DNA of 64,000 bases, taken from positions 14,858 through 78,857 of the forward strand of contig CAVWLH010000004.1 in assembly GCA_963755925.1 (NCBI GenBank), written 5' to 3'. The notes beneath the pieces are model-generated. The model saw only the letters and a list, made by a program, of their open reading frames with translations. It did no database searches and was not told where the DNA came from. Every line of letters begins with the position of its first letter. Position 1 is the first letter of the stretch. The translations under genes and the position numbers were made by a program. Of the stretch, positions 1 to 54,259 are shown piece by piece. The DNA comes from an uncultured Acidobacteriaceae bacterium. Lineage in GTDB: Bacteria > Acidobacteriota > Terriglobia > Terriglobales > Acidobacteriaceae.

Positions 1-33
1 ATGTCATTGTCGAATTTGTGCTACAGCCTCAGG

Positions 34-387
34 CTAAGAGATTAGTAGCGTCCCCAACCGCCGCCACCGCCACCACCGCCACCGCGGCCACCACGTCCGA
101 CCGCCGCGTCCGCCACCGCCGCCTTCGCGCCGCGGCCGGTCCGTCTTGGGACGGGCTTCGTTCACGGTCAGGTTGCGCCCGCTGAGGTTGGTGCCGTTCA
201 GCGCTTCCATCGCCTTGCCGGCCGAGTCATCGTCCGACATTTCGACAAATGCGAAGCCGCGCGATTGCCCGGTGTCGCGATCGGTCACAATGCTGACCCT
301 ATCGACTGGGCCATACGCTTCAAACATCGCGCGTACCTGGTCTTCAGTCGCATCGAAGCTTAGGTTCCCCACGTAGATGTTCTTCAT
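34..387 (-). CDS. RNA-binding protein with one RRM domain and a Gly-rich tail (the tail reads out of frame here)
   Basis: MKNIYVGNLSF...SRGFAFVEM carries the RNP-2/RNP-1 motifs. After GGGGGRGGR the ORF reads TWWPRWRWWRWRR. The adjacent frame reads GGRGGGGGGGGGWGRY-stop (TAA 42..44), which is the usual Gly-rich tail. A 1-nt indel near 95-105 is probable. Confidence 0.85.
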   Translation of the reverse strand: MKNIYVGNLSFDATEDQVRAMFEAYGPVDRVSIVTDRDTGQSRGFAFVEMSDDDSAGKAMEALNGTNLSGRNLTVNEARPKTDRPRREGGGGGRGGRTWWPRWRWWRWRRLGTLLIS

Positions 388-543
388 TGGTTCCTCGCTT
401 TCAGAGTAGGCCGCTTGCCGGCCGATCCTTTGGCAGCCCTACGCGGCATGAATTGGGGTGATTACGACCAAAGACTCAATCGCCTTCTCATCGTCGCAAA
501 TAGCAGAGGGCAGCGTCTGCCACCCTCGCTTCGTGCTTCTTGT

Positions 544-744
544 TTACAGAACCTGTACGTTCTCAGCCTGCCAACCCTTGGCGCCACGCTTCACGTCGAA
601 GCTCACGGCTTGACCTTCCTGCAGGGAGCGGAAGCCGTTCGACTGAATGGCGGAGAAATGGACGAAAACATCTTCGCCGTTCTGACGTGAAATAAAGCCA
701 AAGCCTTTGGCATCGTTAAACCACTTTACTGTTCCTTGTTCCAT
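544..744 (-). CDS. cold-shock protein, CspA family
   Basis: An internal Met of ORF 544..858 gives [34 protein letters not shown]..., 66 aa. This contains the canonical cold-shock-domain RNP motifs KGFGFI and VFVHF. Confidence 0.93.
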
Positions 745-794
745 TTGTTTCTTGATTTTCCTTAATGTTGATGTTGCGTTGGTGAATCGGAAGG

Positions 795-2359
795 TTACAG
801 GCAGGAATCGCTCGAAACAGAAGGAGGGATGGCTGCTAAACGCGCCGTTCGAACACACGCAAACTTATTATACAACAACTGCCGCCCTTGGTGCTCAGAA
901 AAGCAAGAAGCATGGGCATTGTCTGACATCAGACCGAGATTCTCGCTTCTAGCCCCGACGAAGGCTTCGGTTTCCTTCAGAATCTGCGACACCAGGTCGG
1001 CGGACGCCGCCTCGCAATAGATGCGCAGCAGCGGTTCGGTGCCCGAAGCGCGGACCAGCACCCAGGCCTCGGCTCCATTGCCGTAGGTGGGCGCGTCCAG
1101 AAAGAACTTCACGCCGTCCAACGTCTCCACCTTCTGCACGCCGAAGCTACCGATCGCTCCCAGGTCTGGCCTGGACGCGCCGCATGGCTTCATCCTTAAC
1201 GTCGTTGCTCAGATGAAGATCGATGCGGCCATAGTGATGCTCGCCGTATTCCTTTTGCAGATCGCGCACCAGTTGTCCCAGCGGCTTTTCTTCTTCCGCC
1301 ATGATGTTGGCCAGCAACAGCGAATTCAGAATGCCGTCGCGCTCCGGCAGATGGCGGCGTAATGCCGATGCCACCCGACTCCTCGCCGCCGATCAGAATG
1401 TCGCGTTCCAGCATAAGATCGCAAATGTACTTGAAGCCGATGCCGCACTCGTGCAGCCTGCGTCCGTATTTCGCGGCGATGCGGTCCAGCATCCGGGTGG
1501 TATTGAACGCCCGCACAATCTCGCCCGGCCATTGCTTGCGCTTCAGCAGCCACTCCAGGATCACGCAATAGATCTTGTGCGCATCCACAAAGCTGCCGTC
1601 TTCCGCGACCGCGCCAATGCGGTCTGCGTCGCCGTCCGTCGCCATCCCGGCCTGGCAGTGCGCATGCACGACCGTCTCCTGCAGCATCGCGATGTGCGGC
1701 TCGATCGGCTCAGGATTGATGCCGGGGAACAGCGGGTTGAGTTCGCCGCGAATCTCGAAGTGATGGATGCCGCTTTCGGTGAAGATGCCTTTCAGCACGC
1801 CGCGTCCGGCGCCGTACATCACGTCGATGGCGAACTTGAAGCCGGCTTTCTCAATCAGCTTCAGATCGACAAAGTTCTTGATGGCTGCGATGTACGGCGT
1901 CTTGAAATCGGTGACGGTCACGCTGCCGCCCTTGCGCTCCAGCCGCGGCGAATCCAACTCGCCCTCAATCGCCTTCATGATCGCCGGCGTGCCTGAGCCG
2001 CCATAGCCGGCCTTGTACTTCACTCCGTTCCAGTTGAAGGGATTATGGCTGGAGGTGATCATCACACCGCCGGCCGCGCCCAGGTTCTTCACCGCGTAGG
2101 AGAGCGCGGGAGTGGGCGTGTAGTCGTCGGAAAGACGCACCGCGATGCCCGCCGCCGCGAGAACTTCGGAGATGATCTGCGCCGCCCGCGGGGAAGCGAA
2201 GCGCGTATCGTAGCCGACGACCAGGCCTTTGCTGGCGTCCTCGTGTTCGTGGACGTAATGCGCCATCGCGTTGCCGACGCGGCGCACATTGTCGAAGGTG
2301 AAGTCGTCGGCAATGATGCCGCGCCATCCATCGGTGCCGAATTTGATTTCAGTGGCCAT
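795..2359 (-). pseudogene. phosphomannomutase/phosphoglucomutase (alpha-D-phosphohexomutase), frame-disrupted in this sequence
   Basis: Motifs seen: TSSHNPFNWNGVKY (catalytic Ser loop), ATDGDADR (Mg site), GGEESGG, and RASGTEPLLRIY. The protein is spread over three frames (ORFs 1196..2359, 1147..1374, 795..1193). Frame switches lie near 1360 and 1175. The last ~50 codons (ENLGLMSDNAH...) look non-protein, so the true stop is probably near 950-975. Confidence 0.85.
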
Positions 2360-2413
2360 TGAAGTTTGAAGGGACGCAGCTTTAGCTGCGCCGTAACCGC
2401 ACTCTAATTATGT

Positions 2414-2456
2414 GTCATCCCGAGGAGGCCTTCAGGCCGACGAGGGATCTGCTGTT
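2414..2456. repeat. dispersed repeat, GTCATCCCGAG...GAGGGATC family (copy 1)
   Basis: Sequence is gtcatcccgaggaggccttcaggccgacgagggatctg. An inverted copy lies at 22862..22897. Related copies lie at 20593..20632 and 29448..29486. Confidence 0.8.
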
Positions 2457-2633
2457 CCGGCGTCCGCATTCCGGCCATCTGCCGCCCTTAGAGGGACTCA
2501 ACCATATATAGCAGCAACCCAGCGCTGAAGCGCTGGGCTAATCGTCGTCCCGCAAGCGGGAGTCGCTTCGTCGCCCTTTGCAGCGATGTGAGCTATCAAC
2601 TTCGCGTCAGAGCACGAACCAACATGATTTGGC

Positions 2634-2668
2634 TGATTGCTAATTGCTAACTGCTAACTGCTAACTGC
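2634..2668. repeat. 7-bp-period tandem array (TGATTGC TAATTGC TAACTGC x3)
   Basis: Read directly from the sequence. It ends 4 nt from the manC stop codon. TAA/TGA occur on the plus strand and TAG on the minus strand, in all three frames. Confidence 0.95.
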
Positions 2669-2672
2669 TTCT

Positions 2673-3899
2673 TCACACCAGCCGCTTCAGTTTCTTCTCG
2701 TCCAGATACTTCACCACTTTGCCGACATCCTGCGCGTGCTCGCGGGTGGTAATCAGCAGCGCGTCGTCGGTCTCCACCACAACAAGGTCTTTCACGCCAA
2801 CGACGGCGACGAATTTGTCGGCCCGGCAATGGATGAAGTTTCCTTCTGCATTCAGGGTGAAGGATTGCTCGGCTGCGATGACATTGGCGCTGTCTTTCCC
2901 ACCGGCATTCCGATGCTCATAGAGCGCCGTCCACGAGCCCAGATCGTTCCATCCAAAGCCGGCTGGAATGCAATAGATGCCCGACTTGCCTTCGCCTTTC
3001 GCCGAGCGCGGCTCCAGCAATGCATAGTCCACGCTAATGTTTTCGCATTTGGGATAGAGCTTGGCGAAGGTCTTTTCGAACTTCCGCGTCCCGTAGCTCG
3101 CCGCAATTTCTTCCAGCAGCGGCGCAGTCTTGGGCAAGTGGTCGCGCAAGGCGTCGGCCAGAGTACGCGCTCCCCAGACGAACATGCCGCTATTCCAGAA
3201 GAAGTTGCCGGCCTTCACGAACTGCTCCGCGATCTTGGCCGTCGGCTTCTCGGTGAAGCGTCGCACATTGAGTGGATCGGCACCCGAACCGGTGAGCCTC
3301 GCATTGAGCCCTGCCTTGAAGGGGGCGGCCTTCAGGCCGTCCGTTACATCCGACCCAACGAGGCTGGCTTTAGCCGCTGAGGAACTGCCCCTTGACCAGG
3401 CCGGAGCCTGCTTAGCGCCAGCTTCGATGTAGCCGTAGCCGGTTTCAGCGCGCGTAGGCTTGATGCCGATCACGACGATGTTCGCTCCCTTTGCCGCGAT
3501 CTCGGCCGCACGCCGGATGTCGTCGCGAAAACGCTTCTCGTCGCCGATGACGTGATCGGAGGGGAACATGCCGATCACCGCGCTGGGGTCGCGCTTCTCC
3601 AGCAGAAAGGCTGTCAGCCCGATCGCAGGCGCGGTGTTTCGGCCAACGGGTTCGGCAATGATCTGCTGCTTGTCGAGCTTCTTGAGCTGACGAACAATCG
3701 GAGTGCGCAGGTCGTCATTGGTGATGACCCAGAAGCGCTTCGCCTTGGCCAAGGGCAGCAGCCGCTCGACCGTCTCCTGGATCATGCTTTTCTTGCTGTT
3801 CAGCGGAAGCAGTTGCTTGGCCAGGCGCTTGCGGCTCAGAGGCCAAAAGCGCGTGCCGCGTCCGCCCGCGAGGATGACTGGATAGAAGTTATTGGCCAA
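2673..3899 (-). CDS. manC: mannose-1-phosphate guanylyltransferase (GDP-mannose pyrophosphorylase)
   Basis: 408-aa ORF. The N-terminus YPVILAGGRGTRFWPLSR is the nucleotidyltransferase signature. FTEKP and FFWNSGMF motifs are typical of ManC/CpsB-type enzymes. It has a TTG start. Confidence 0.85.
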   Translation of the reverse strand: MANNFYPVILAGGRGTRFWPLSRKRLAKQLLPLNSKKSMIQETVERLLPLAKAKRFWVITNDDLRTPIVRQLKKLDKQQIIAEPVGRNTAPAIGLTAFLLEKRDPSAVIGMFPSDHVIGDEKRFRDDIRRAAEIAAKGANIVVIGIKPTRAETGYGYIEAGAKQAPAWSRGSSSAAKASLVGSDVTDGLKAAPFKAGLNARLTGSGADPLNVRRFTEKPTAKIAEQFVKAGNFFWNSGMFVWGARTLADALRDHLPKTAPLLEEIAASYGTRKFEKTFAKLYPKCENISVDYALLEPRSAKGEGKSGIYCIPAGFGWNDLGSWTALYEHRNAGGKDSANVIAAEQSFTLNAEGNFIHCRADKFVAVVGVKDLVVVETDDALLITTREHAQDVGKVVKYLDEKKLKRLV

Positions 3900-4103
3900 A
3901 TCGTTTCACCACAGAGACACCCTTCGGCTGCGCTGAGGGCAGGCTCCCGAACATAGAGAATGTTGAATGTTCGATTTTACCGAATGTCTGAATATGGTGC
4001 TCGTGAGATCATCTACCAATGTTTCCCCAGTTGTTGGTAGTCCAAAATACACTCGCCGGAGCCGGCGAAGTGGCGGGGATCCCCACCACGGAAGGATGAC
4101 TTG

Positions 4104-4676
4104 ATGCCAGCCTCGCGTTTCTCGCAGCTTCTATGTCGCGCTTTGTGGTTGTTTGTCCTGGCGGGGTTGGTTGTGCTCACGGCCCACGCGCAGAAGATCA
4201 AGGTGGCCTATGACCCTAACCTCGATTTTGCCAAGTTCAAGACCTTCGCCTGGGGCGCGCATGATGCGGTCTCTCGTCCAATGCTGGCTGCCGCCATTGC
4301 CGGTGCTATCGAAGAGGAGCTCACCAAGCGCGGCTTGCAGAAGACCGACGGCCACCCGGACCTGTATGTCCAAATGTACGGTTCATCGGATTCGGATATG
4401 GCGGTGAGTTACTCCGACCTCTACAGCGGATATGCTGGCATTCCGCCATTCGATCAGAACTTTCTGATGTGGGGTGCGGTGCCCGGCTCGACCACGACAG
4501 TGGTTGTACACAAGGGGCAACTCGTGGTCGATCTTATCGATGCAGCTCACAGGAAAATCGCATGGCGAGGCATAGCAAAAGAGAACCTCAGCGACAACAG
4601 AGGGAAGCTGGTGGACCAAGTCAATACAGCGGTAGAAAAGATGTTTAAGAAGTATCCGGTCGGCATTGCTCGCTGA
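4104..4676 (+). CDS. DUF4136-like secreted/lipoprotein
   Basis: A signal peptide (LWLFVLAGLVVLTAHA) is followed by KIKVAYDPNLDFAKFKTFAW...LVVDLIDAAHRKIAWRG, a pattern I recognise as DUF4136. The ATG at 4104 is preceded by GGAAGGA. Confidence 0.7.
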   Translation: MPASRFSQLLCRALWLFVLAGLVVLTAHAQKIKVAYDPNLDFAKFKTFAWGAHDAVSRPMLAAAIAGAIEEELTKRGLQKTDGHPDLYVQMYGSSDSDMAVSYSDLYSGYAGIPPFDQNFLMWGAVPGSTTTVVVHKGQLVVDLIDAAHRKIAWRGIAKENLSDNRGKLVDQVNTAVEKMFKKYPVGIAR

Positions 4677-4688
4677 GGACGCAAGCGA

Positions 4689-4830
4689 GCAGGCCGCTGA
4701 AAAATTCGTTGTTGTCGCGTTTTGAAGGGGCGCAGCTTTAGCTGCGCCGTCATAAGGCTTTTATTTTTGTCTTTCCGAGCGGGCTTCAGCCCGCGAGCAA
4801 TCCGCTCTTCGGACTTTTTCAGCGGCCTGC
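4689..4830. repeat. composite inverted-repeat element (16-bp perfect terminal IR enclosing two tetraloop hairpins)
   Basis: GCAGGCCGCTGAAAAA at 4689..4704 pairs with TTTTTCAGCGGCCTGC at 4815..4830. Inner hairpins are ggcgcagc-ttta-gctgcgcc (4729..4748) and gcgggc-ttca-gcccgc (4779..4794). It lies between the convergent genes DUF4136 and manA. Confidence 0.85.
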
Positions 4831-4872
4831 GAAGGCGTGCTCTAGCCGAAGGCTGCCTCTGTGGTGGGAAAA

Positions 4873-5769
4873 CTATTTTGCGCTGACCGATTGCGGCAGT
4901 TCGGTCTGCGGCTCCGCGACTGCTCCTGTGGGCAGCGACATTCGCATCACTTCCAGCTCCCACTGCGGCCGCACCGTGTATTCACCAACGCAGGCCGGAA
5001 CCACCACGGCATCGCCAGTGGCAAAGCTGATCGGCTCCATCCCTTGCGATTCCACGATCCCCGAGCCGCTCACCGCGACCAGGATGTGTGGCGAATCGCG
5101 TGACACCTCGGAGCGCAAGGCATCGCGCAACCGCATCTTTTCCACCTTAAAAAACGGCGAGCGCACCAGAACGTCGGACTCGTCGCTCGGCCGCCGCACA
5201 ACTTTGCCGGCATTGGTGTGCAGCCTGGTCGCGGCCAATCCTTCTGCGATGTGAAGTTCGCGCGGACGGCCGTAATCATACAAGCGATAGGTAATGTCCG
5301 AGGTCTGTTGCGTCTCCACCAGCACCATCCCGCCGCCAATGGTGTGCACCGTTCCGGCGGCGACGTAGAGCATGTCGCCGGCGTAGACATCGACCCAGTT
5401 CAGCAGCTTCTCCGCGCGGGTGTCCTGGATCGCCTGCTCGAAATCCGCGAGCGTCGCTCCCGCTTTCAAACCCAGCGCCACTTGCGCGCCAGGATTCGCC
5501 CGCAGCACGTACCAACATTCGGTTTTGCCGCAGGGCTGGCCGTTCTTGCGCGCTTGCTCATCATCGGGATGAACCTGCACCGACAGCTTGTCGCCAGGAA
5601 ATAGAAACTTCACCAGCAGCGGAAAGCGATTGTCGTAAACGGCGGCTTGCCCCACCAGATCGCGCCCAAACTTCTTCGCCAGATCGCCCAGGCTTTGTCC
5701 GGCGAGCGGCCCGTTGGCGACGCGATTGTCTTCCCAGGTCAGCCAGCTTTCGCCGATCGGCTCCTTCAC
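4873..5769 (-). CDS. manA: mannose-6-phosphate isomerase, class I
   Basis: 298-aa ORF with LSVQVHPDD, GKTECWYVL and YVAAGTVHTIGGG, the type I PMI cupin/zinc-ligand motifs. Confidence 0.85.
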   Translation of the reverse strand: MKEPIGESWLTWEDNRVANGPLAGQSLGDLAKKFGRDLVGQAAVYDNRFPLLVKFLFPGDKLSVQVHPDDEQARKNGQPCGKTECWYVLRANPGAQVALGLKAGATLADFEQAIQDTRAEKLLNWVDVYAGDMLYVAAGTVHTIGGGMVLVETQQTSDITYRLYDYGRPRELHIAEGLAATRLHTNAGKVVRRPSDESDVLVRSPFFKVEKMRLRDALRSEVSRDSPHILVAVSGSGIVESQGMEPISFATGDAVVVPACVGEYTVRPQWELEVMRMSLPTGAVAEPQTELPQSVSAK

Positions 5770-5864
5770 GATTCTGGTATAGATGGGGCGCAGATCGCAG
5801 GCTGCCCCACGGCCGCTCGTCGAAGATGGGGACCACCAGAGAATGGATAAAGTTGCGACATCGG

Positions 5865-7080
5865 TTACACGCTGGCGAAAAAGTCGCGCATGCGATCCAG
5901 CCCGCGCTGCAGATTCTCAGGCGAGGTCGCATACGAGATGCGGACGTGGTCTTGGGTGCCGAAGCCTTCGCCGGGAACGACCACGACGTGCGCCTCATGC
6001 AGCAACCGTGCGCGCACGTCGGACGCGGAGTTCATTCCGCCGCGTTCGAAATAATGGCTGACATTGGGATAAGCGTAAAACGCGCCATTCGGCGTAGCGC
6101 AGGTGATTCCGGGAATCGAGCGCAAGCCGGCGACAACCTGGTCGCGAAGAACGGATGTAGCCAGCCAGCATCTGCTTTACGCAATCCTGCGAGCCATTCA
6201 GCGCGGCCACCGCGGCCTTCTGCACAATCGACGTCGGGTTCGAGGTGCTCTGGCTTTGCAGCTTCTGCATTGCGCTGACTGATCGGCGCGGGTCCCAGCG
6301 CGTAACCCAGCCGCCAGCCCGTCATGGCGTAGGTCTTCGACAAGGAGCCGATGATGATGAGCCGCTCCTTGACCTCATGCACGCAGCCCGCCGAGAACCG
6401 CTGGCCAGTGTGGTTCAGGTAGACGTAACACTCGTCGGAGACAACATAGATACCGCGATCATGCGCCAGCGCAGCACTGCAGTCATGTCCTCGGGCTTCA
6501 TCACCGCGCCCGAAGGATTGTTGGGCGAATTCAGAATGATGACTTTGGTGCGCGGGGTGATCGCGCGCTCCACCATGTCGGCGGTCAGCGCGAAATCGTG
6601 CCGTTCGTCGGTGGCAATGTAGACCGGTTCGCCGCCGGCATAGCGCACGATGTCTTTGAAGGAAACCCAGTAGGGCACCGGCAGAATGACTTCGTCGCCG
6701 TGCTCGACCAGCACCTGGATGGCATTGAACAGCGCATGCTTGCCGCCGACGGAGGCGATGCAATCTTCGCGCTTGTAGTCGGAGCCGAAGTCGGCAGCGT
6801 GCCGCTGGATGATGGCATCGCGCAATTCGGCCGTGCCGCCTACCGCCGTGTACTTGGTGAAGTCGTTGCGAATGGCCGCGATGGCCGCTTCCTTGATGTG
6901 CTCGGGCGTGGGGAAGTGCGGCTCTCCCGCGCCCAGGTCGACCAGGTCCGCGCCCGTGGCGCGAAGTTTATCGGCTTCTCCCGCCACCGCCAGAGTGGCG
7001 GAAACTTCGATGCGTTGAATTCGGTCGGTGAGAAACGAGGCGAGCTGAGTTCCGGCAGCAGTCATGGTCTGGCCGTTCAT
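5865..7080 (-). pseudogene. PLP-dependent aspartate/aromatic aminotransferase (class I), frame-disrupted in this sequence
   Basis: Motifs seen: GEPHFPTP, ILNSPNNPSG, SLSKTYAMTGWRLGY (PLP Lys) and VVPGEGFG. They are spread over four frames (ORFs 6415..7080, 6032..6763, 5995..6270, 5865..6125), implying at least 3 frame switches (about 6480, 6270, 6125). Confidence 0.85.
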
Positions 7081-7598
7081 AAAAGATGTTTCCCTGTGGC
7101 TGAAATATGTCCCTGGGTGATTCTCTGGCGCACTCGCCGCTCTACCATCTCCGGCACCAGGCCGTTCAACGGGCCGCCGAGCTTGGCAATCTCGCGCACA
7201 ATCCGCGAGCTGAGATAGGAATACTGTTCCGCGGGCATCATGAACACGGTTTCCACGCGCGGTTCCATCTTGCGATTCATCAGCGCCATTTGCAGCTCGA
7301 ATTCGTAATCGCTGATGGCGCGGATGCCGCGCAGCACGGCGTTCGCGTTCTTCTGGATGCAGTAGCTCACCAGCAGGCCCTCGAAAACATCGACGCTGAC
7401 GTTGTCGAGCTGCGAGGTCATGGCCACCAGCATCTCCTTGCGCTCCTCCATGGAGAAGAGCGTCTCGCCCTTGTCGAGGTTGCGCGCGATGGCCACGATC
7501 AGTTTATCGAAGAGTTTGCTGCCCCGGTGAATCAGGTCGAGGTGGCCGTTGGTCACGGGATCGAACGATCCGGGATAGATGGCGACGATGTCCTTCAA
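7077..7598 (-). CDS. coaD: phosphopantetheine adenylyltransferase
   Basis: IAIYPGSFDPVTNGHLDLI ... LRGIRAISDYEFELQMALMN ... SSRIVREI. There is an ATGA overlap with the aminotransferase start. Confidence 0.93.
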   Translation of the reverse strand: MKDIVAIYPGSFDPVTNGHLDLIHRGSKLFDKLIVAIARNLDKGETLFSMEERKEMLVAMTSQLDNVSVDVFEGLLVSYCIQKNANAVLRGIRAISDYEFELQMALMNRKMEPRVETVFMMPAEQYSYLSSRIVREIAKLGGPLNGLVPEMVERRVRQRITQGHISATGKHLL

Positions 7599-7745
7599 GG
7601 GTCCTCGGAGGCGGGGATTTACGGCTGCATGATTTTATTCTGGCTGGCGTCGGCAGGCAAACAGGAACATGACGGGGAGCCCGACTTGGGCCGTGGCAGA
7701 TGCGCCGAACGATCGAAGGACCCGCCGTTGGCCAGCGGGTCGCAT

Positions 7746-8856
<1,111 letters not shown>

Positions 8857-9025
8857 GAGTGCCGCTCCTTGGCTGCTCCGTCCCGGCACGGCATTGGCGC
8901 GGGAGGACAGGTTGAAGATGAATGCTATGGGTCAGTGAGGCAGGCGCCGTGGAATGGGCGATTCGCAGTGAAGAGCGCATGGATACCTGACGTTGCAATT
9001 ATACATTGAGTTACGCCAAAAAAGC

Positions 9026-9051
9026 GAACAAATAGCGAAGTAGGGCGGAAC
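9026..9051 (-). promoter_or_regulatory. candidate LexA/SOS operator upstream of recA (GTTC-N7-CTTC-N7-GTTC on the recA strand)
   Basis: The plus strand reads GAAC aaatagc GAAG tagggcg GAAC. These are direct tetramer repeats at 11-bp phasing, about 170-195 nt upstream of the recA start. They resemble the GTTC-N7-GTTC LexA box I recall for Alphaproteobacteria and Acidobacterium capsulatum. Confidence 0.3.
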
Positions 9052-9224
9052 GAAAGTACTAGTACGTTCGTGTCTCACATCGCGCTTGTGACGGCGATTG
9101 CGGCAGGTCAGCTGGGCATTTCTGGCGGGATTTTCACAGAAGGCAGCTCAATAATTACTGTACGATATTAACATTCAAGTACAATTTCACCAGTGCACCG
9201 CAGTTCGCACAAATGGAGCAGGCT

Positions 9225-9756
9225 TCAATGCGCCTCAGGCAGCGTGTACGCGAAGTCGTAGGAATGCTTCCCATCGGCAATGGTGATGTTCATCTCGCCC
9301 GTTAAGGCCGACGAGCTGGCCTGTCCCCGAGTCGGGCACGACGGAGACGGTCAAATGTGGTGCTCCGCGAGTCATGATGCCGGTGTGATGCAGCAGGAAA
9401 GTACCCTTGTGTCCCGCCAACGTCCCGGTGAACTGTTCGATCGCGACGTATACCGCCGAGCCCTTCACGTCGGTGCCGGCGGTCAGCATCTCGACCCTGC
9501 TGGTGCCTTCGAGACCGCCGTGGAACTGCTTGTCGATGGACATTCGACTGACAGCAGCCGGCTTGGATTGATCGTCTGCGGCTTGAGGAACTACCTTCAC
9601 CTCAAATGTTCCGGTTGCATGTGCGGTCATCAACACATCCTTGTTGTTCGGCATTGGAGTCTTCGACGAGTCCTGCGCAGCTGCCGAATAGGACAGGGCG
9701 AAGAGCACACCCAGGGTCACGATGATGTAGCTTATGGTCCGAGATTCCGGTGTCAT
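9225..9756 (-). pseudogene. DUF3224-like secreted protein, C-terminus frame-shifted in this sequence
   Basis: ORF 9235..9756 has a signal peptide, then ATGTFEVKV...MSIDKQFHGGLEGTS...GTFLLHHTG. After GLNG the adjacent frame reads EMNITIADGKHSYDFAYTLPEAH-stop (TGA 9225..9227). The sequence aacggGcgag suggests one extra G. Confidence 0.65.
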
Positions 9757-9774
9757 ATTCGTTCCATAGCCTGG

Positions 9775-11356
9775 CTATCGTTTCAGCAAGTCCACCGGCT
9801 CGCGTACATCGGTCACGCGGAAATATTTCGCCAGCGAAGGATAGCGCTGCGCCACGGCTTCGTACATCGCGTAGGCCACATTGCGATAGGAAAAGTGACC
9901 GGCTGCACCCGTCCGCAGCTCGCTGATATAGATCGCCTCGGCCAGGTCCATCTTGAACAGCGTGCGCTTGCGGAAGGCCAGTGGGATGACGTATTGCGAC
10001 TGTGCTCCGCTTCGGGCTGATTCGCCGGCCGGCAACCTGCCCGGCGGTATCCCGCGCACGCTCCATCGCAACCTGATAGCGCTCGGCCAATCCTGCCGAA
10101 TCGATCTCTACCGGTTCGTCGTATCCGTGCGCCGTGGTGTAGTCCTGCACAATCTGCACGCAGCGGCGATGGCGATGCATGTCGCGAAAGCCGCCGATGT
10201 CCATCAGGATGTCGAAGCGGAATTGCTGTCCGGCGCAGAAGGCGCGCGAGACTTCATCGTGACGCCCGCGATGACGCAGGCCCATCTCGACGATCTCGCG
10301 GCGTTGCGCCTCCGGCAGCGCGCTAACGACGTCCGAATTTGCCGGTACGGATGATGCGAGTACTGATACAGCAACGTCGCTGCGAGCTCGATCTCCAGCG
10401 GATCGGCGTCGAGCAAATCAACGGTCGGGGCTGGTCTCAATCGCAACGCCAGCTAACAATTCCTGCGCCGCTACCTTCAGTTCGCGCCGGGTTTCGATCT
10501 CGTAGGCGTTAGGCTCGGCATACTTCATCAGCGTGGGCGCGACGCGGATTGGCCGCATCAGGAATTCGCCGGCACGTCCTGCCAGCTCAGGAGACTCGTG
10601 CGCAATCTCATCCAGCAATGCCCATGCTTTGGCATGGCTGACGTCGTACGCAGGCTCCTGAGCGGCGCGTCGCAACAGTTCGCCCAGATGGCGCACTTCG
10701 GCGTGGGTGTGCGACAGCAAACGCGAGACCTGATTCTCCAGCGTCCGCGCGCTGACGATCTGGCCCAGCGAGGTGTTGGTCGCCAGCGGCAGCAGATAGC
10801 GCGAGAGGTCGAAGGCGCGGGCGCGCAGGGTGCGCTCGTACGCCTCCTGCTTCATCTCCGCAGGCTTGGGCGTGCGCTCGCGAAGGTAGCCAAACATTTC
10901 CTCGGAGAAGTGGCGATACTCGGCGAAGAGGTGATCGACGGTGTCCCGATACAGGACGCGCGCCGCTGCGTCGTCGCCAAAATCAGGAACGTAGTATCCG
11001 CTCTTCTGGAAGTCCTGATAGCGGGTGGAACGCTCCTGGCCGTCCCAGCGCGGCTCATCGACGGCGACGGTCGCGGCCAGGATCGACAGCCGCTCGATGG
11101 CGAAGGCGATGTGCGCCAAATCCGCAATGCTGCGATGGCCGTACTGAAAGTAGAAGGTGTTGAGGAACTTTTCGGCTTTCTGGTCGTTGATCTCGGCCAG
11201 CGATTCGCGCATGGACAGCGCCGAGCGCGAATATTTGGCCATGCCGTACGCCTGCACCTCGGGATCGGCGCCGTGGACGGCGTAAACCTGGGTGCTGGGC
11301 TCGTGGTTGGAAGGAACTTCGCTGTTATCCGCGTCTGGTTTGTAACCGAGTGACAT
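9775..11356 (-). pseudogene. thyX: FAD-dependent thymidylate synthase ThyX, long two-domain form, frame-disrupted in this sequence
   Basis: ORF 10418..11356 has YGHRSIADLAH and QERSTRYQDF. It continues through ORFs 10204..10446 and 9602..10285 (GGFRDMHRHRR) and 9775..10071 (ELRTGAAGHFSYRNVAYAMY). At least 3 frame switches. Total length is about 525 aa. Confidence 0.8.
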
Positions 11357-11444
11357 TGCGGTGAATCATATGCGGTATGGGACAGGCGGGCAACCGTCGA
11401 AGCTGTGGGAATCGTGTAAAACTGGTGACATCCCATAAATTCTC

Positions 11445-12305
11445 TTGCGTAAACCTCCGCCTGAAGCCGATCTCGCCTCCGATAGCCGCACCCAGTGGGT
11501 GGGCGCGGACTCCATCCTGTTTGCCACGGCGCATCGGCCATGGCCCGCGCCCATGGCGCCGTGGATCATGACCCAGCGCTGGAACGATCTTCTGTTTATG
11601 CACTATTCGCTGGCGCCGGAAATGGTGCGGGCGCTGGTGCCGGAATCCCTCACGGTGGATACCTATCAGCAACGCGCGTGGGTGTCGGTGACGCCGTTCT
11701 GGATCAATCATCTGCGGCCGCCGGGAGTGCCTTCGCTGCCGTGGCTCTCGCATTTTTCCGAGATCAACGTGCGGACCTACGTCAGCTACAACGGCAAGCC
11801 CGGCATTTACTTCTTCAGCCTGGATGCCAGCAATCTGTCGGCCGTGTGGGGCGCGCGCGTCTTCTATCGGCTGCCGTACTGGCAGGCGTCGATGAAGGTG
11901 AAGGGCAAAGGCGGAGCGAGGATCGACTACCTCTCGAAGCGGCAGCATGGGCCGAAGCCTGCCGAGTTGAAGTGCTCGTACGGGCCGGCCAGTCGACAGA
12001 CGTTCCAGGCGCGACCGGGATCGATTCAGCACTTCCTCACCGAGCGATACTGCCTTTATTCCGTCAGCCGAAAGCACCTGTATCGCGGTGAGATTCACCA
12101 TCTGCCGTGGGATTTGCAGGAGGCGGTGGTTGATCTCGAAGTGAACACGATGGCGCAACCTGCGGGTCTGCAACTTCCTGCTCAGCCCGATCTGGCGTAC
12201 TTTTCGAGCGAGTTGAAAGTGCTGTTCTGGGCGCCGGAGCGGCTGTTGATAGCAAGAGTCGAGCAACGATTGAGTAGTGCACGCCTTCAGGCCGGCGTTG
12301 CATAG
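11445..12305 (+). CDS. DUF2071 (YqjF-like) family protein
   Basis: RPWPAPMAPWIMTQRWNDLLFMHYS...VTPFWINHLRPPG...EINVRTYV...GIYFFSLDA matches the DUF2071 pattern as I recall it. The start is uncertain (TTG 11445 or GTG 11499). Confidence 0.7.
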   Translation: MRKPPPEADLASDSRTQWVGADSILFATAHRPWPAPMAPWIMTQRWNDLLFMHYSLAPEMVRALVPESLTVDTYQQRAWVSVTPFWINHLRPPGVPSLPWLSHFSEINVRTYVSYNGKPGIYFFSLDASNLSAVWGARVFYRLPYWQASMKVKGKGGARIDYLSKRQHGPKPAELKCSYGPASRQTFQARPGSIQHFLTERYCLYSVSRKHLYRGEIHHLPWDLQEAVVDLEVNTMAQPAGLQLPAQPDLAYFSSELKVLFWAPERLLIARVEQRLSSARLQAGVA

Positions 12306-12328
12306 ACCCACTCACCAACGGATAGTTG

Positions 12329-12474
12329 CCTTGTATCAGGGCACGGCTTGAGCCGTGCCGTTCGGCTGCCAAAGAATTGGGCTTTAGCTCCTGAGGGATT
12401 CTGTTCGCAGGGGCTAAAGCCCAAAGACTCAACTACGCATTCGGCATCGACCAAGGTCGTGCCCTGATACAAGG
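12329..12474. repeat. composite inverted-repeat element (17-bp perfect terminal IR enclosing hairpins)
   Basis: CCTTGTATCAGGGCACG at 12329..12345 pairs with CGTGCCCTGATACAAGG at 12458..12474. Inner hairpins are gggcacggcttgagccgtgcc and gggctttagctcctg...caggggctaaagccc (15-bp stem, 1 mismatch). Confidence 0.85.
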
Positions 12475-12611
12475 CGGAGTGATTTTTCAGATGGGAAGCC
12501 TAACGCGAGCATGAAGGTCCGCACTACCCGAACAGCACATCCGGCCAAGACGCTCCACTCTGATTCGCTGGCGCTGGTTATAATCCAGCTTGCTTCATGC
12601 GGGAGGGATTC

Positions 12612-13360
12612 ATGGCAGGAGTGGAAGGCCGGGTCGCGCTGGTTACGGGAGCGTCGCAGGGCATAGGCCGGGCGTGCGCGCTGGTTCTGGCTGAGTCGGG
12701 AGCGAAGCTGGCGTTGTGCGCGCGCAATCAGGAGAAGCTGGAGCAATTGGCCGGCGAGATCAACGGCAAGGGCGGCGAGGCTGCCGCGTTCAAGCTCGAC
12801 GTCGCCAGCGAAGACGAAATCAAGGCCGTCGTAAAGGCGGTGATCGCGCGCTTCGGCAAAATCGACATTCTGGTCAACAATGCCGGCATCACCCGCGATC
12901 AGCTGGTCATGCGCATGAAGCGCGCCGACTGGGACGACGTCCTCGCCACCAACCTGACCGCGCCATTCCTGCTGATCACAGGCCGTCATCGGCTCCATGC
13001 TGAAGCAGCGCTGGGGGAGAATCATCAACATCACCAGCATCTTTGGACAGATCGGCCAGGTCGGGCCAGGCCAACTACTCGTCGTCGAAGGCCGGGCTGA
13101 TCGGCCTTACCATGTCGGTGGCGCGCGAGGTTGGATCGCGCAACATCACCGTCAACGCGGTTGCGCCGGGCTTCATCGAGACGGCGATGACCGAGGTCCT
13201 TCCGGCTGAGTTGAAGGAGAACATCCTGAAGAACATTCCGCTGGGACGGGCGGGCAGCGATATGGACGTGGCCCACGCCGTGAAGTTTCTGGCGTCGGAG
13301 GAAGCGGGCTACGTTACGGGGCATGTGCTGAATGTGAATGGCGGGATTCTGATGGGATAG
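12612..13360 (+). pseudogene. fabG: 3-oxoacyl-[ACP] reductase FabG, frame-disrupted in this sequence
   Basis: The ATG at 12612 follows GGGAGGG. Motifs: VALVTGASQGIGRA and LVNNAGI. It continues in ORFs 12997..13209 ([23 protein letters not shown]) and 13043..13360 ([13 protein letters not shown]...GHVLNVNGG). Switches lie near 12975 and 13065 (gggCcaggcc suggests one extra C). Confidence 0.9.
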
Positions 13361-13650
13361 CAGCGGATTTACATCTGTTGCATTTTCGGGTGGGGCACGC
13401 CTTTCATGTTGCACAAGTGCCGAAGATTCTCGAGGGTGGCTTTGCGTGAGGAACTCTTCGCTGGATTTGCCTCAGCGGCTGAAGCCGGATTGATGAACAT
13501 CGAGCATCTGATGCACGCCGGAAGCGGTTGCTGAAAAAGTTGCAGTTCGTGGCGTGAGTCGCCGGGTAAAGCGGCTCGGGAAAAAATACGGAGCCTCGGC
13601 AGCGGTCGGCAGGGTTACGCCACAGCGAGCACACGTAAGGTCCGCTCCCC

Positions 13651-14379
13651 GTGATCGAGGATACATCGATCGTGAATTGGGATAGCCCAGCAGGATTGGT
13701 GCAGCATGAGTCTGAAATTGTCGAAGCCACAACGCCGGAGCAGATCGAGCAGGTGCGAAACCTGTTCGCCGAATATCGCGCGCAGTTGCCGGTGGAATAT
13801 TGTTTTCGAACGTTCGATGCTGAAATTGCCGGACTGCCGGGCGCGTATTCTCCGCCGCAAGGAACGCTGTTGCTGGCGATGGTCATAGGGCAGCCGGTGG
13901 GATGCGTCGGTCTGCGTCCGTTCCCGCTCGAGGGGCGCTGCGAGATGAAGCGGCTTTACATACGTCCGGCATTTCGCGGCGACAAGCTGGGGAAAAAGCT
14001 GGTGGAGCGGTTGCTGCGGGAGGCGCGGCGTCTGGGCTATTCGTCCATGCGGCTGGATTCGCATCCGCCGACAATGCAGGCCGCAGTGGAGATGTACCGG
14101 AAGCTTGGTTTCCGCGAAGTCAGTCCTGATCCGCTGGAACCGGTGGAAGGACTGATCTATATGGAGTTGGCAGTTGATCTAAAACCGTTGTCAGTTGCCG
14201 GTTATCAGTTGTCAGTCGCACTCAATTTCATTTGTGCGAGAATTCACTTGCCAGCCTTCCCGGCAATGGTTACTATGCAGTCAACCCCATGGCCACTCCC
14301 CCACAGGACGAAAACCCCTCATGAACATCGGCGAGACGATCCGCAATTTCCGCCTGCAAAAAAGTATGTCGCAAGGTGA
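13651..14379 (+). CDS. GNAT family N-acetyltransferase (3' end uncertain; probable read-through)
   Basis: VGCVGLRPF...CEMKRLYIRPAFRGDKLGKKLVERLLREARRLGYSSMRLDS...AVEMYRKLGF is an acetyl-CoA-binding GNAT core. After IYMELAV the ORF runs through a 7-bp-period array (14171..14219) and 59 nt into the next gene. The real stop is probably the TGA/TAA at 14175-14182, in another frame. Confidence 0.7.
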   Translation: MIEDTSIVNWDSPAGLVQHESEIVEATTPEQIEQVRNLFAEYRAQLPVEYCFRTFDAEIAGLPGAYSPPQGTLLLAMVIGQPVGCVGLRPFPLEGRCEMKRLYIRPAFRGDKLGKKLVERLLREARRLGYSSMRLDSHPPTMQAAVEMYRKLGFREVSPDPLEPVEGLIYMELAVDLKPLSVAGYQLSVALNFICARIHLPAFPAMVTMQSTPWPLPHRTKTPHEHRRDDPQFPPAKKYVAR

Positions 14380-14668
14380 CATCGAAAAGCGCACCGGTCT
14401 GCTGCGCTGTTATCTGTCGCGGGTGGAGAATGGCCACACCATTCCCTCGCTGGATACGCTGGCCAGAATTGCGACGGCGATGGATCTTCCGCTGTCCAGA
14501 TTCTTTACCGACGGCGCCAGCGACAATGGGAGCAAGACGCCGCAACTGGCCGAAGATGAAGTACGCTTCCTGACGCAGATTCGCCGCTATTCGCCCAACC
14601 TGAACGACAGCGACCGCAAGCTGGTGATTGCGATGGTCAAGAAGATGGCCGCGACCGCCGGCAAGTAG
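14321..14668 (+). CDS. XRE-family helix-turn-helix transcriptional regulator
   Basis: MNIGETIRNFRLQKSMSQGDIEKRTGLLRCYLSRVENGHTIPSLDTLARIATAMD is an HTH_3/Cro-C1-type motif. 115 aa from the ATG at 14321. Confidence 0.85.
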   Translation: MNIGETIRNFRLQKSMSQGDIEKRTGLLRCYLSRVENGHTIPSLDTLARIATAMDLPLSRFFTDGASDNGSKTPQLAEDEVRFLTQIRRYSPNLNDSDRKLVIAMVKKMAATAGK

Positions 14669-14878
14669 TGAACCACGAAACCGAGACACAGTTCAGTGAA
14701 TCACAGGCACTGGGCGTCCAGATCTTGATGTGCGTCTGCGCGAATGTCGCGCATCCGCCCATCGCTCGGCATGCAAAATGAACCGTTATGCGGAGATCTG
14801 ATCGGCCACGCTAAATGCCATCTAGAATGACGTTGTCTCGCAGCCTCAGTGCAACGGAAGATAAGGGAAAGGGAATTC

Positions 14879-16448
14879 ATGGGAAAAATTCAACGGGCAA
14901 TCTTAAGTGTTACCGACAAGACAGGGCTGGTGGAATTTGCGCGCAGGCTGGCGAAGATGGGCGTGGAACTGGTCTCTACCGGAGGCACGGCCAAGCTGCT
15001 GCGCGATTCCGGCATCGCGGTGAAGGACATCTCCGATCTCACCGGCTTTCCGGAGATGCTGGATGGCCGGGTGAAGACGCTTCACCCCAAGGTGCACGGC
15101 GGCATCCTGCACGTGCGCGGCAAGGCGGAACATCGCGCTGCCGTCAGCGAGCATGGCATTGAGCCCATCGACATGGTGGTGGTGAACCTCTACGCCTTCG
15201 AGAAGACCGCAGGCAAGCCCGGCGTGGAGTTCGAAGACATCATCGAGAACATCGACATCGGCGGGCCGTCGATGGTGCGCTCGGCGGCGAAGAACTTTCA
15301 GGATGTTGCCATCGTGACTTCGCCGTCAGACTACGAGGCCATCGCCGGCGAGATGGAGAGCGGCGGCGGATCGCTGTCGTTGAAGACGAAGTGGCGGCTG
15401 GCGCAAAAGGCGTTTGCGACGACGGCGGCATATGATTCGGCGATTGCGTCCACTCTGGAGCGCATCGGCGCGCCCGAGAGCGATGCCGGGAAATTCGCAC
15501 TCGGTAACGCAGACGTTTTTCCTGAGACGCTTGCGGCTCAGCTTTCGCAAAGCATTCGATCTTCGCTACGGCGAGAATCCGCACCAGAAAGCTGCGCTGT
15601 ACTCCGACGGCTCAGGTAAAGGCGTAGCGAATGGCAAACAGCTTCAGGGCAAGGAACTCAGCTACAACAATATTGTCGATCTGCAAGCGGCATGGGACCT
15701 GGCGCAGGAGTTCGAGGAGCCAGTCTGCGCGATCATCAAGCACACCAATCCCTGCGGAACGGCAGTGGCAACCACGCTGGCCGAAGCCTACAAGCGCGCG
15801 CTGGAGTGCGATCCGGTATCGGCGTTCGGCGGCGTGATCGGGGTCAATCGCGCCATTGATCGCGAGACGGCGACGGAAATGGCCAAGCTGTTCGTCGAGG
15901 CAATCGCCGCGCCGGGATTCGACGACGCGGCGCGCGAGATCTTTGCCACCAAGAAGAATCTGCGGCTGGTGGAAGTTGTGCCGATGGAGCAGAAGTGGGT
16001 GCTGAAGAATGTTTCCGGCGGCGTGCTGCTGCAGGACAACGACATGCGGCCGCTCACCGAAGCCGACCTGAAGATCGTCAGCGAGCGCAAGCCGACGGAG
16101 CAGGAGATGCGCGATCTGCTGTTCGCGTGGAAGGTGTGCAAGCACGTGAAATCGAATGCGATTCTCTATGCCCGCAACGGCCAGAGCACCGGCGTGGGTG
16201 CGGGCCAGATGAGCCGCGTGGATTCGGCGAAGATCGGCGCGATGAAGTCGGTGCTGGGGATCAAAGGCTCGGTTGCGGCGTCCGACGCGTTCTTCCCGTT
16301 TCCCGATGGGGTTGAGGAGATTGCGAAGGCGGGCGCGACCGCGATTATCCAGCCCGGCGGTTCGGTGCGCGATCAGGAAGTGATTGACGCAGCCAATCGA
16401 CTTGGTCTGGCGATGGTGCTGACCGGCGTGCGGCATTTCCGGCACTAG
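14879..16448 (+). pseudogene. purH: bifunctional AICAR transformylase/IMP cyclohydrolase PurH, frame-disrupted in this sequence
   Basis: [25 protein letters not shown] and [15 protein letters not shown] in ORF 14849..15619. LRYGENPHQ...IIKHTNPCG...GQMSRVDS...IQPGGSVRD in ORF 15414..16448. One switch near 15530 (acgctTgcgg suggests one extra T). Confidence 0.92.
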
Positions 16449-16536
16449 GGACCCGATACTGACGGACGGCGGTCCTATCGTGAACGCGGTCGTAAGACCA
16501 GGACCGGGGTGCGGTGTTACTTTCGAGAAACGACCT

Positions 16537-18180: not shown

Positions 18181-18226
18181 GGAATTTTGTGCCAAGTTTT
18201 TGTGCTAGGATTCCAGCCATCCGGCC

Positions 18227-40677: not shown

Positions 40678-40680
40678 GCC

Positions 40681-42789: not shown

Positions 42790-42860
42790 GAAGAACCAAG
42801 AATGAAGAACCAAGAATGAAGAACCAAGAATGAAGAAACCAAGAATGAACAATGAAGAAC
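42790..42860. repeat. tandem repeat, 14-bp unit GAAGAACCAAGAAT x4 plus partial units, immediately upstream of the fliA RBS
   Basis: Units at 42790, 42804, 42818 and 42832 (the last has one extra A), then gaacaatgaagaacg. It is flanked by the near-direct repeats gaagacgatttcg and gaagaacgattcg. Confidence 0.95.
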
Positions 42861-45637: not shown

Positions 45638-45867
45638 ATTCACCACGGAAGCACGGAGGACACGGAGAAGAAAGAAAAAGGCTCGAAAAGAAAGAAAAAA
45701 GGAAGAAAAGAAAAGCAAGAAAAAAAAGAAGAAAGAAAAGGCAAGAAAGAAAAGAGAGAACGAAAAGCTGGAAAAAAAAGAAGGAAAACGGAATTCGGGA
45801 ATTGTCATCCGATTTTCTTGCTTCCCATTTTTTTCCTCTCCGTGTCCTCCGTGCCTCCGTGGTGAAT
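45638..45867. repeat. 30-bp inverted repeat (ATTCACCACGGARGCACGGAGGACACGGAG family) enclosing a ~170-nt almost pure A/G tract
   Basis: Left arm 45638..45667, right arm 45838..45867 (1 mismatch). The interior is gaagaaagaaaaagg...gaaggaaaacgg. It lies between the fliN stop (45629) and the ATG at 45889. Confidence 0.9.
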
Positions 45868-48243: not shown

Positions 48244-48465
48244 GGCGGTTGCTTTCTGTTCAATATTTCCATAAAGACAGATACACTGAATCAGAATGCC
48301 CATTGCGGGGCCTGGGAGGGCCCTACGATCGACTAGTGGGTGCCTGGAGGTATCTAGGGCTGCCTGAAGCCGTGAAACGCGCCAGAAGGGCTGCAAACGC
48401 CAGCACAGCGGTTTCCCGATATGGAACTGGATGCCGGCCAGTTTTTCCTCGAAAGTACGCATGGG

Positions 48466-54258: not shown

Positions 54259-54259
54259 G

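Follow-up and report, generated by a model that had tools for sequence, protein, structure and literature searches.

Why do tandem arrays with an exact 7-nt period lie again and again at the ends of genes in an acidobacterial genome, and are the stop codons that some of them contain the reason? The question is raised by a stretch of 64,000 nt (64 kb, about 60% G+C; hereafter the window) from an uncultured Acidobacteriaceae bacterium (GenBank assembly GCA_963755925.1, contig CAVWLH010000004.1, positions 14,858 to 78,857), which carries a flagellar cluster, lpxD, hemA and manC. A preliminary description had listed at least 11 such heptanucleotide arrays and proposed that they act as translational insulators with stops in every frame. 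Heptanucleotide arrays are the commonest class of long simple repeats in several bacterial phyla, and both their origin and their function are unexplained. We favor, with some reserve, the view that the arrays are lineage-specific heptanucleotide simple repeats of fast turnover, tolerated only in harmless positions. The stop codons in them appear to be incidental and not the property under selection.

Comparison set

The FlgI protein of the window was used as a query and yielded 80 loci in GTDB species representatives. The closest FlgI-matched loci belong to Terriglobales/'Candidatus Korobacteraceae' metagenome-assembled genomes (MAGs) from peat and soil, with FlgI identities from 94% down to 59%. 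A set of 81 Terriglobales loci (about 1.7 Mb of related sequence; single loci are given below by L numbers) served as a surrogate for a genome-wide scan, and the frequencies below refer to it unless the window is named. Arrays were scored with Tandem Repeats Finder (TRF) at a score of at least 30 for periods 7 and 14; a stricter earlier period scan had given only four arrays in the window. Genes in the 81 loci were predicted with a codon-usage open reading frame (ORF) caller trained on the window, whose start sites are approximate and which missed some genes; 76-81% of the DNA was called coding. In positions 1-19,682 of the window, gene calls came from a codon-log-odds ORF caller. No match was obtained when hemA, a 312-aa gene and a 445-aa gene were looked up as exact proteins.

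The array family is real

We detected 12 period-7 and 4 period-14 arrays in the window, compared with a mean of 1.8 in 30 dinucleotide-preserving shuffles of the same sequence, none of which reached 16. The 7-nt register is strict (0% indels by TRF) at all previously listed coordinates except 33252-33284, where it is visible only when the sequence is printed directly. The strong arrays (TRF 50-67) are those at 2634, 48563, 50280 and 56628. Others are weak or degenerate and singly near the chance threshold, including 14171 (whose first two units are poor), 20676 (2.7 copies, score 31), 48466, 60510 and 33252 (no TRF call). As a whole, the array family is far beyond chance, and the claim of at least 11 heptad arrays holds, although several are weak singly. 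The gene assignments and distances given for manC, lpxD, flgG/flgA, the BI-1-like gene and hemA also proved correct throughout. Two arrays had been left off that list: (GAAGAAC CAAGAAT)5 at 42790-42859 and (GCACTTA)2.3 at 33092-33107. The same arrays were found in a 481-kb ENA contig, two NCBI MAG contigs and one Logan contig, all 99-99.9% identical to the window; given that these are independent assemblies, the arrays are not an assembly artefact. A scan of the window against Rfam 15 gave no match at the gathering score.

The related loci show the same picture. Period 7 is the commonest tandem period among them, with 200 arrays and a further 74 of period 14 compared with about 70 each for periods 6 and 8. 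The arrays comprise 92 distinct canonical units, and runs of the TAANTGC type occur at 7 sites in the window and in at least 12 loci.

Arrays are attracted to stop codons

Of the 263 period-7/14 arrays, 200 were intergenic, with only about 18% of the DNA being intergenic; arrays of periods 6, 9 and 12 were mostly genic. When each array was compared with uniform placement in its own intergenic region, it lay nearer to a gene boundary in 151 cases vs 46. Where an intergenic region exceeded its array by at least 150 nt, the array lay within 10 nt of a flanking stop codon in 33% of cases compared with 3.7% expected, and this proximity was also seen for solitary arrays (31%) and when junction groups were counted (41/115). 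Co-directional intergenic regions were strongly favored, and arrays were rare between divergent genes. The closeness to gene ends claimed in the preliminary description was therefore borne out, non-random over related loci and stronger than had been supposed, the attraction being to stop codons. A second, metagenome data set contained 18 arrays in 322 kb, 3 of them paired as described below; array abundance and pairing frequency are therefore patchy across lineages.

Inverted pairs of arrays

Several window arrays are the reverse complement of a neighboring array, a feature overlooked before. Requiring two tandem reverse-complement units within 400 nt of an array, we found inverted partners for 124 of 231 arrays; direct partners were found for only 7, and the flanks of unrelated arrays, used as a control, gave 4. 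Pairs were present in 39 of the 57 loci that hold arrays. For 71 distinct pairs the arms could be defined, with a median arm of 28.5 nt and a median loop of 54 nt. At the 10th-25th percentile, the distance from the end of the 3′ arm to the start codon is 15-17 nt, and a Shine-Dalgarno-like motif follows within 12 nt in 23 of 66 co-directional pairs. The arrangement recurs at the junction of flgI and the next gene in about 19 distant relatives, in which (GGTCGTT)n starts 1-4 nt after the flgI stop and (AACGACC)n ends just before the next ribosome-binding site.

Four arm pairs are present in the window, all on the + strand. Between hemA and a TPR gene, (GCAATTA)3 followed by the 5′ arm GCTGCGA GCCGCGA GCTTCGA occupies 60375-60419 (TRF 41 and 36), of which 60375-60396 covers the last seven or so codons of hemA (Pfam) and its stop (60394-60396). 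The 3′ arm at 60511-60540 (CGAAGCT CGCAGCT CGTACCT CGAAGCT AA) directly abuts the Shine-Dalgarno sequence AAGGAG (60541-60546) of the TPR gene (ATG 60553), and 60386-60415 and 60511-60540 form an inverted repeat of 30 nt (77%). Upstream of flgF, a 5′ arm of CCAGTGG-type heptamers (48462-48491) faces a 3′ arm of CCACTGG and CCACTAA units (48537-48566) in an inverted repeat of 30 nt, 80% complementary. A third 5′ arm, (GCACTTA)2.3 with an extension (33092-33113, TRF 32), overlaps the last codons of the gene at 32499-33113; its 3′ partner (GCTAAATGCCAAGTGCTAAATGC) lies at 33252-33284, and the inverted repeat 33092-33113/33256-33277 is 22 nt long and 86% complementary. The loop of this pair holds a dispersed element of about 90 nt (33139-33229). 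Finally, the 5′ arm TTAGCTTAGCAGTCAGCA (56546-56563) overlaps the flgL stop (56547-56549) and is complementary in several registers to 56651-56671 and 56695-56709 (14-15 nt, 87-93%), within the long 3′ arm array at 56628-56710 (TAAGCTA, TGACTGC and TAAGTGC among its units; TRF 50) upstream of a cupin_5 gene.

When these four regions were folded, the arms paired with each other in the minimum free energy structures, with z values of -0.9, -1.3, -1.7 and, for the pair at 33092, -4.2; thermodynamics alone is no proof of the arm structure. Mismatches between arms are symmetric in the sense strand (80 G:T vs 87 A:C), giving no sign of wobble tolerance at the RNA level and fitting a process at the DNA level. 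We also considered intrinsic terminators and rejected them, since TTTT occurs within 12 nt after the 3′ arm in only 1 of the 66 co-directional pairs.

Two further observations concern strand and long-range arrangement. Array pairs between co-directional genes number 65 for + strand genes and 1 for - strand genes, with - strand regions making up about 19% of co-directional intergenic DNA in the 81 loci; the + strand bias of arrays and pairs may reflect flagellar-operon enrichment or a replication-strand effect. In addition, the arrays (CCCAGTC)5 at 48563-48599 and (GGGACTG)4 at 50241-50268, which bracket flgF-flgG, are complementary at a distance of 1.64 kb, and in L005 ACAACTG upstream of flgF is matched by TAGTTGT-type units downstream of flgG (6/7 complementary). 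Long-range pairing, inversion potential or coincidence may account for this.

Turnover among close relatives

Arrays differ among close relatives in length, in unit and in presence. Compared to the 99%-identical ENA contig, the array at 56628-56710 differs by an indel of exactly 28 nt (four units), the other arrays being identical; a metagenome scan for further same-species contigs found none above 96% FlgG identity. Between species at about 85% nucleotide identity, the position of an array is usually kept, and its units and copy numbers change. The length polymorphism and positional conservation in relatives that the preliminary description had asked about were thus both found, the length differences being in 7-nt steps. 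Upstream of flgF, for example, one and the same site is occupied by CCCAGTC, CCACTAG or ACAACTG, depending on which of three species is considered. In both the window and L004, GCTGCGA-type units pair with TCGCAGC-type units at hemA|TPR, L004 having one extra 7-nt unit, and L005 has other units (GCAATTA with TAATTGC) that are still complementary. At flgL|cupin, loop and arms are inverted between the window (56550-56680) and L005 (14846-14972; minus-strand blastn match, 85% over 129 nt), which points to exchange between inverted heptamer arms at the DNA level.

A case of clean presence and absence is the flgG|flgA junction. In the window, (GGGACTG)4 (50241-50268, +) starts at the last base of the flgG stop codon, and (TAATTGC/TAACTGC)4-5 (50280-50314, +; TRF 59) reaches the flgA Shine-Dalgarno sequence (GGAGG; flgA GTG at 50323), so that the two arrays together span the distance from the flgG stop to the flgA ribosome-binding site. 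Only in the immediate clade of the window is this junction array-filled and 70-82 nt long. In every relative with FlgG identity of 87% or less, and also in L090 (94%), it is array-free and consists of 8-13 nt (stop, GAGG, start). Units and copy numbers also differ: GGGACTG plus TAATTGC in the window, GCTAGTT plus (GCTAATT)7 in L005, (CCAGTGG)5 in L006/L091, (TTGCTAA)4 in L092, three TTACTAG-type units in L087/88 and none in L090, with L004/L142 forming a group of their own. The ancestral compact junction was presumably translationally coupled. Given its compact, array-free form in relatives, the arrays loosened a tight flgG|flgA junction and did not insulate it.

Such clean presence and absence would also be expected of a non-autonomous mobile element similar to REPINs (hairpin-forming doublets of repetitive extragenic palindromes, REPs) or to MITEs (miniature inverted-repeat transposable elements), in which arm, loop and arm would be copied by a transposase encoded elsewhere and the arrays would be terminal inverted repeats. 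REPINs are likewise inverted hairpin doublets (PMC3116915), the same unit families occur at many loci, and these intergenic regions also contain other dispersed elements of about 90 nt, of which one sits inside the loop of an array pair. Moreover, in L028-type loci the arm-loop-arm insert between flgI and the next gene is flanked by a direct duplication of about 15 nt of the flgI end (CTGGAGGTCATCT / CTGGAGACAATCT). This duplication may be target-site-like, or may reflect a need to keep both the flgI C-terminus and the next Shine-Dalgarno sequence. However, no sequence is common to the loops of different array elements, the arms range continuously in length and unit without a fixed consensus, and solitary arrays are common. 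No transposase was seen beside any window array in a search that was not exhaustive, and we know of none associated with heptamer arrays. A mobile origin therefore seems improbable to us. The MITE form of the idea was rejected: in blastn searches with array-bearing intergenic regions, the loops were recovered only as orthologous copies, and the 90-nt dispersed elements are separate entities. A further duplication was observed at the flgI end of L033 (11118-11161), where the last 14 nt of the gene, including the stop, are tandemly triplicated.

Stop codons appear incidental

The insulator proposal holds that the arrays were selected for stops in every frame, which would catch read-through or frameshifted ribosomes. 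The preliminary description had stated that in many arrays stops occupy all three frames of both strands. This is true of 4 of the 12 listed arrays (2634, 50280, 56628 and 60375), and 6 of the 12 have them on the + strand; the statement does not extend to the others, with almost no stops in any frame at 48549-48599 and 60510-60540 and none in any of the six frames at 50241-50268. One of the four is the solitary array at 2634-2668 (TGATTGC TAATTGC TAACTGC x3; TRF 57, 0 indels), which ends 4 nt downstream of the manC stop (manC 2673-3899, - strand; Pfam), reads GCAGTTA in the manC sense and has no inverted partner in 2300-2700. Whenever a unit contains a stop trinucleotide and its length is not divisible by 3, stops in every frame result by simple arithmetic.

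Expectations for stop content were obtained by permuting the bases of each unit. Overall, stop-bearing units are modestly enriched, 146 vs 114 +- 6 by array and 47 vs 39.9 +- 3.4 by distinct unit, which together with the four six-frame arrays is what speaks for insulation. The excess does not extend to the arrays that adjoin stop codons, where insulators would act: among arrays within 10 nt downstream of a stop, 25 of 76 contain sense-strand stops compared with 27.8 +- 3.6 expected. The proposed comparison of stop-bearing and stop-free heptads after correction for composition thus came out positive in the set as a whole and negative at the places that matter. In addition, proximity to stop codons is greater for stop-free than for stop-bearing units (43-44% vs 27% within 10 nt), and 96 of 242 arrays are stop-free on both strands. 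Three-frame stops within 45 nt were found at 14% of array-hugged gene ends, a metric confounded by downstream coding sequence. In the TAANTGC family (127 units), the stop-destroying change T>C at position 1 (14 units) is as common as the stop-keeping A>G changes (19 of TGA type and 8 of TAG type), and is thus not selected against. With the array-free ancestral flgG|flgA junction added, the insulator idea is already largely refuted, and we regard it as extremely improbable.

Among the 32 strand-symmetric trinucleotide classes, counted over distinct units, CAG/CTG and AGC/GCT are enriched (z = +3.5) and GTG/CAC is depleted (z = -3.5), and the stop classes reach only z = 1.2-1.9. Avoidance of start codons was considered and rejected, as the depletion of ATG and GTG seen by array shrinks by distinct unit to ATG z = -1.2 (not significant), with only GTG/CAC remaining.

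Arrays close to start codons show a different pattern. Within 25 nt of a start, 21 of 41 arrays contain sense-strand stops (TAA-type) vs 12.3 +- 2.3 expected, an excess dominated by one homologous junction. The array TAGTTGC TGATTGC TAATTGC TCGTAGC TCGTAGC (32459-32493, +), which three other assemblies contain in identical form, occupies the space from the lpxD stop (32446-32448) to ATG 32499 of a 204-aa gene; it ends 5 nt before this ATG, at which no Shine-Dalgarno motif is visible, as in Beggiatoaceae (PMC4679880). The arrays in general could be multivalent sites for a sequence-specific nucleic-acid binder. Candidates are a ring-shaped RNA-binding protein and a translational regulator of the S1/Csp/CsrA type, the latter having been proposed for TAACTGA repeats, and the enriched CAG/CTG and AGC/GCT core would suit such a role. 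However, the units at one junction are wholly different between sister species, as upstream of flgF, the loci contain 92 distinct canonical units, and the same unit family occurs in both orientations relative to transcription. This explanation appears very improbable.

Origin and possible function

If the arrays are tolerated simple repeats, as we favor, units would be gained and lost in 7-nt steps by replication slippage and variant units would spread along an array. An array and a nearby reverse-complement partner, present in about half of the cases in related loci, would form imperfect hairpin arms with several pairing registers, and the complementarity of these arms would be upheld at the DNA level by template switching or by exchange between arms. 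A period of 7 shifts the frame, and most units would harm a gene or a regulatory site, so that arrays would persist only in harmless places, chiefly in the interval that separates a stop codon from the following gene's ribosome-binding site or promoter block; this would explain why they hug gene ends. The 7-nt steps, the inverted pairs and the presence or absence in close relatives are observed; the generator (slippage and template switching) and near-neutrality are inferred. The fallback reading of the preliminary description, a slippage-generated or selfish class resembling the cyanobacterial short tandemly repeated repetitive (STRR) sequences, likewise fits the data.

Several observations weigh against near-neutral tolerance. 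Proximity to stop codons, with 5′ arms beginning at a median of 6 nt after the stop, is tighter than a model in which arrays persist anywhere harmless predicts. Arms have a polarity, being G+T-rich near stops and A+C-rich near starts (75:47 vs 24:51), although this is moderate. The joint switching of units in both arms, as at hemA|TPR, needs either selection for pairing or an undemonstrated templating mechanism. The element between flgI and the next gene is kept in 7 genomes, with a loop identity of 0.83 vs 0.76 at 4-fold degenerate sites. Finally, the recurrence of a few unit families at many loci is unexplained by a purely local origin.

Given that only translation 'knows' the position of a stop codon and that arrays lie tight to stops, a role similar to that of REPs and bacterial interspersed mosaic elements (BIMEs) is a live alternative, even if we judge it unlikely. 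The pairs would then be functional intercistronic RNA hairpins that lower or uncouple downstream translation, stall upstream termination or shield the upstream mRNA from 3′ exonucleases, with copy number as the tuning parameter. The large excess of inverted over direct and control partners fits such a role, as do the joint switching of arms, the conserved flgI element and the position of the arms, the 5′ one inside the stretch covered by the terminating ribosome, the 3′ one next to the following Shine-Dalgarno sequence. The 65 of 66 co-directional pairs between + strand genes lie on the strand of the flagellar cluster in these loci, and flagellar biology suggests that the products of flgG, flgI, fliN and flgL are needed in more copies than those of their downstream neighbors. 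It has been reported that Escherichia coli REPs less than 16 nt from a stop codon cause ribosomes to stall and lower the expression of the gene upstream (Liang et al. 2015, as cited in PMC12306157). On the other hand, G:U does not exceed A:C among arm mismatches, the fold z values are mostly unremarkable, and many window arrays (2634, 32459, 42790 and 50280) are solitary. Arms and loops are wholly replaced between species at about 85% nucleotide identity, and the absence of the element from the same junction in close relatives implies that it is dispensable.

A more specific form of this idea, which we consider a long shot, is that paired arrays are register-tolerant, slippable hairpin valves in which the number of units sets termination-initiation coupling or upstream mRNA survival, and slippage retunes operon stoichiometry. 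If true, it would provide a function for a repeat class that has lacked one since 1990 and a means by which populations could quickly retune the stoichiometry of operons. The geometry is unusually clean, with inverted arms spanning from the stop to the next ribosome-binding site within well-understood flagellar operons, and sister species in which the same junction is empty or holds other units provide natural controls; a REP-like role is thus directly testable. Whatever their role, the arrays have a practical effect, in that they fragment short-read assemblies and lead ORF callers astray where genes end.

Other arrays and repeats in the window

Five copies of GAAGAAC CAAGAAT (42790-42859, +; period 7/14, TRF 111 at period 14) follow the flhA stop (42770) and precede the fliA ribosome-binding site, with no partner found. 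A degenerate CAGTTGY array at 14171-14219 (TRF core 14187-14216, 73% matches, score 39), for which no partner was found either, lies in the tail of a GNAT-domain ORF (13651-14379) and upstream of an HTH gene (about 14321-14668; both by Pfam). The weak array GCTGAGA GCTGAAA GCTGACG GCTCTAC (20676-20703, TRF 31) lies in a convergent intergenic region and ends 2 nt from the stop codon that closes the BI-1-like gene (20706-21128, - strand; Pfam BaxI_1). The (CCCAGTC)5 array at 48563-48599 (+; equivalent to a CCCCAGT unit, TRF 60-67) is stop-free and lies just upstream of a conserved block (TTTCTTAACCCAATCTAATCTCC) that precedes a sigma54-type promoter of flgF (TGGCCTCCTCATTGCA, GG-N10-GC, 48667-48682); block and promoter are both kept in relatives.

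Repeats of other types were also observed. Between convergent PIN-domain and cytochrome c genes (58115-58270), a 13-nt unit (GCACTTCAGTTCA) is present in about 11 tandem copies, with indels relative to the 99%-identical ENA contig. Inverted repeats of 8-nt units (CACGGAGG, CACAGAGA) occur at 45631-45677/45828-45874 (47 nt, 89%) and 48159-48188/48214-48243 (30 nt, 87%); the former pair, also kept in L005, lies on either side of an A-rich tract (45685-45788) located between fliN and the gene after it. The dispersed element of about 90 nt at 33139-33229, which has an internal hairpin (GCGGACCGCCTGAAGGCGGTCC), has a copy in L004 (14996-15105, 86%) and others in L006 and L022. The manC ORF, whose Pfam NTP_transferase match is split in two, contains a 76% copy (3303-3386, -) that may have been inserted in frame. 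Another dispersed element, intergenic and about 95 nt long, has copies 76-82% identical at 2364-2458, 22862-22946 (-) and 4721-4810, and is also present in L016.

Several genes differ from the same ENA contig. In 53896-56549, both flgK (459 aa) and flgL (302 aa) are broken into two ORFs apiece. The BI-1 gene (20706-21128) encodes 140 aa instead of 255 aa, and flhB and flhA form one 1056-aa ORF (39600-42770). These are either assembly indels or real pseudogenes and fusions.

Comparison with known heptamer repeats and related systems

Acidobacterial units are identical or nearly identical to cyanobacterial and Beggiatoaceae ones, which raises the puzzle of convergence, a shared mechanism or horizontal transfer. 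The unit CCCCAGT, for example, is common to the cyanobacterial STRR sequences and the window. Our arrays resemble this type of long simple sequence repeat in having at least three indel-free 7-nt copies, an excess over composition, a dispersed and mostly non-coding distribution and copy-number variation in unit steps. In the strict sense the name does not apply, given that the host is no cyanobacterium and its closest genomes are Terriglobales/Korobacteraceae MAGs. The STRR sequences consist of heptanucleotides in tandem, scattered through non-coding DNA (Mazel et al. 1990, as cited in PMC4692102); they were defined in heterocystous cyanobacteria, where function and generating mechanism are unknown as well.

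The preliminary description knew of no report of such arrays outside cyanobacteria, nor of any mention of their three-frame stops. Neither impression survives a look at the literature. Heptanucleotides are the most abundant long simple repeats in many prokaryotes (Mrazek et al. 2007, as cited in PMC4679880). Arrays of TAACTGA have been described in Beggiatoaceae, Thiocystis, cyanobacteria and Bacteroidetes (MacGregor 2015, PMC4679880), where they are read as stops in every forward frame and the stops are treated as a constraint on placement. Heptamer arrays of unknown function are reported for Xanthomonas (GGGAATC) and Nostoc (GGGGA(C/T)T) (Rehm et al. 2015, PMC4692102), and four-unit heptamer elements have been annotated in Geobacter (PMC2700814). 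We found no paper describing heptamer arrays in Acidobacteria.

A close parallel exists with the repeats of Rehm et al. (PMC4692102). These are dispersed 7-nt tandem units with a non-coding bias, prefer co-directional genes, are rare between divergent ones, and lie 0-50 bp from a stop codon or overlap it. They form 70-75 convergent inverted pairs per Xanthomonas genome, keep their position between species and vary in length and sequence, and the Nostoc unit is the same as that of the GGGACTG/CCCCAGT arrays of the window. However, most acidobacterial units are not G-rich, have no G-quadruplex capacity and show no preference for four units. A tract of three or more G per unit over about four units is found only at 50241-50268 and, on the other strand, at 48563-48599, and the TAAYTGC, GCTGCGA, CCAGTGG and GAAGAAC arrays are without G-tracts. 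A further difference, apart from the phylum Acidobacteriota itself, is that many unit families are present per genome and replace each other at a given junction.

The TAACTGA repeats (PMC4679880) are one base away from the TAACTGC of the window and are likewise intergenic, often upstream of a start without a canonical Shine-Dalgarno sequence, and some overlap the end of the upstream ORF. Beggiatoaceae have one dominant unit, mostly forward and before starts, with one inverted repeat reported, whereas acidobacterial arrays have diverse units in both orientations, dominant stop proximity and common inverted pairs. With REP, BIME and REPIN elements (PMC3116915; PMC12306157) they share an extragenic position after stops in co-directional or convergent regions, inverted doublets able to form hairpins in single-stranded DNA or mRNA, and a fraction within about 15 nt of a stop codon. 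However, those elements are built on a fixed imperfect palindrome of 20-40 nt tied to a RAYT (REP-associated tyrosine) transposase, and here we found heptamer arms of variable length, 92 units and unrelated loops instead of a single conserved palindrome. Heptamers outside cyanobacteria, their stops, their stop proximity and their inverted pairs are therefore already published, and what our analysis adds to these systems is the diversity of units, the geometry of arms reaching from the stop to the ribosome-binding site, the joint switching of units and the junctions that are empty in sister species.

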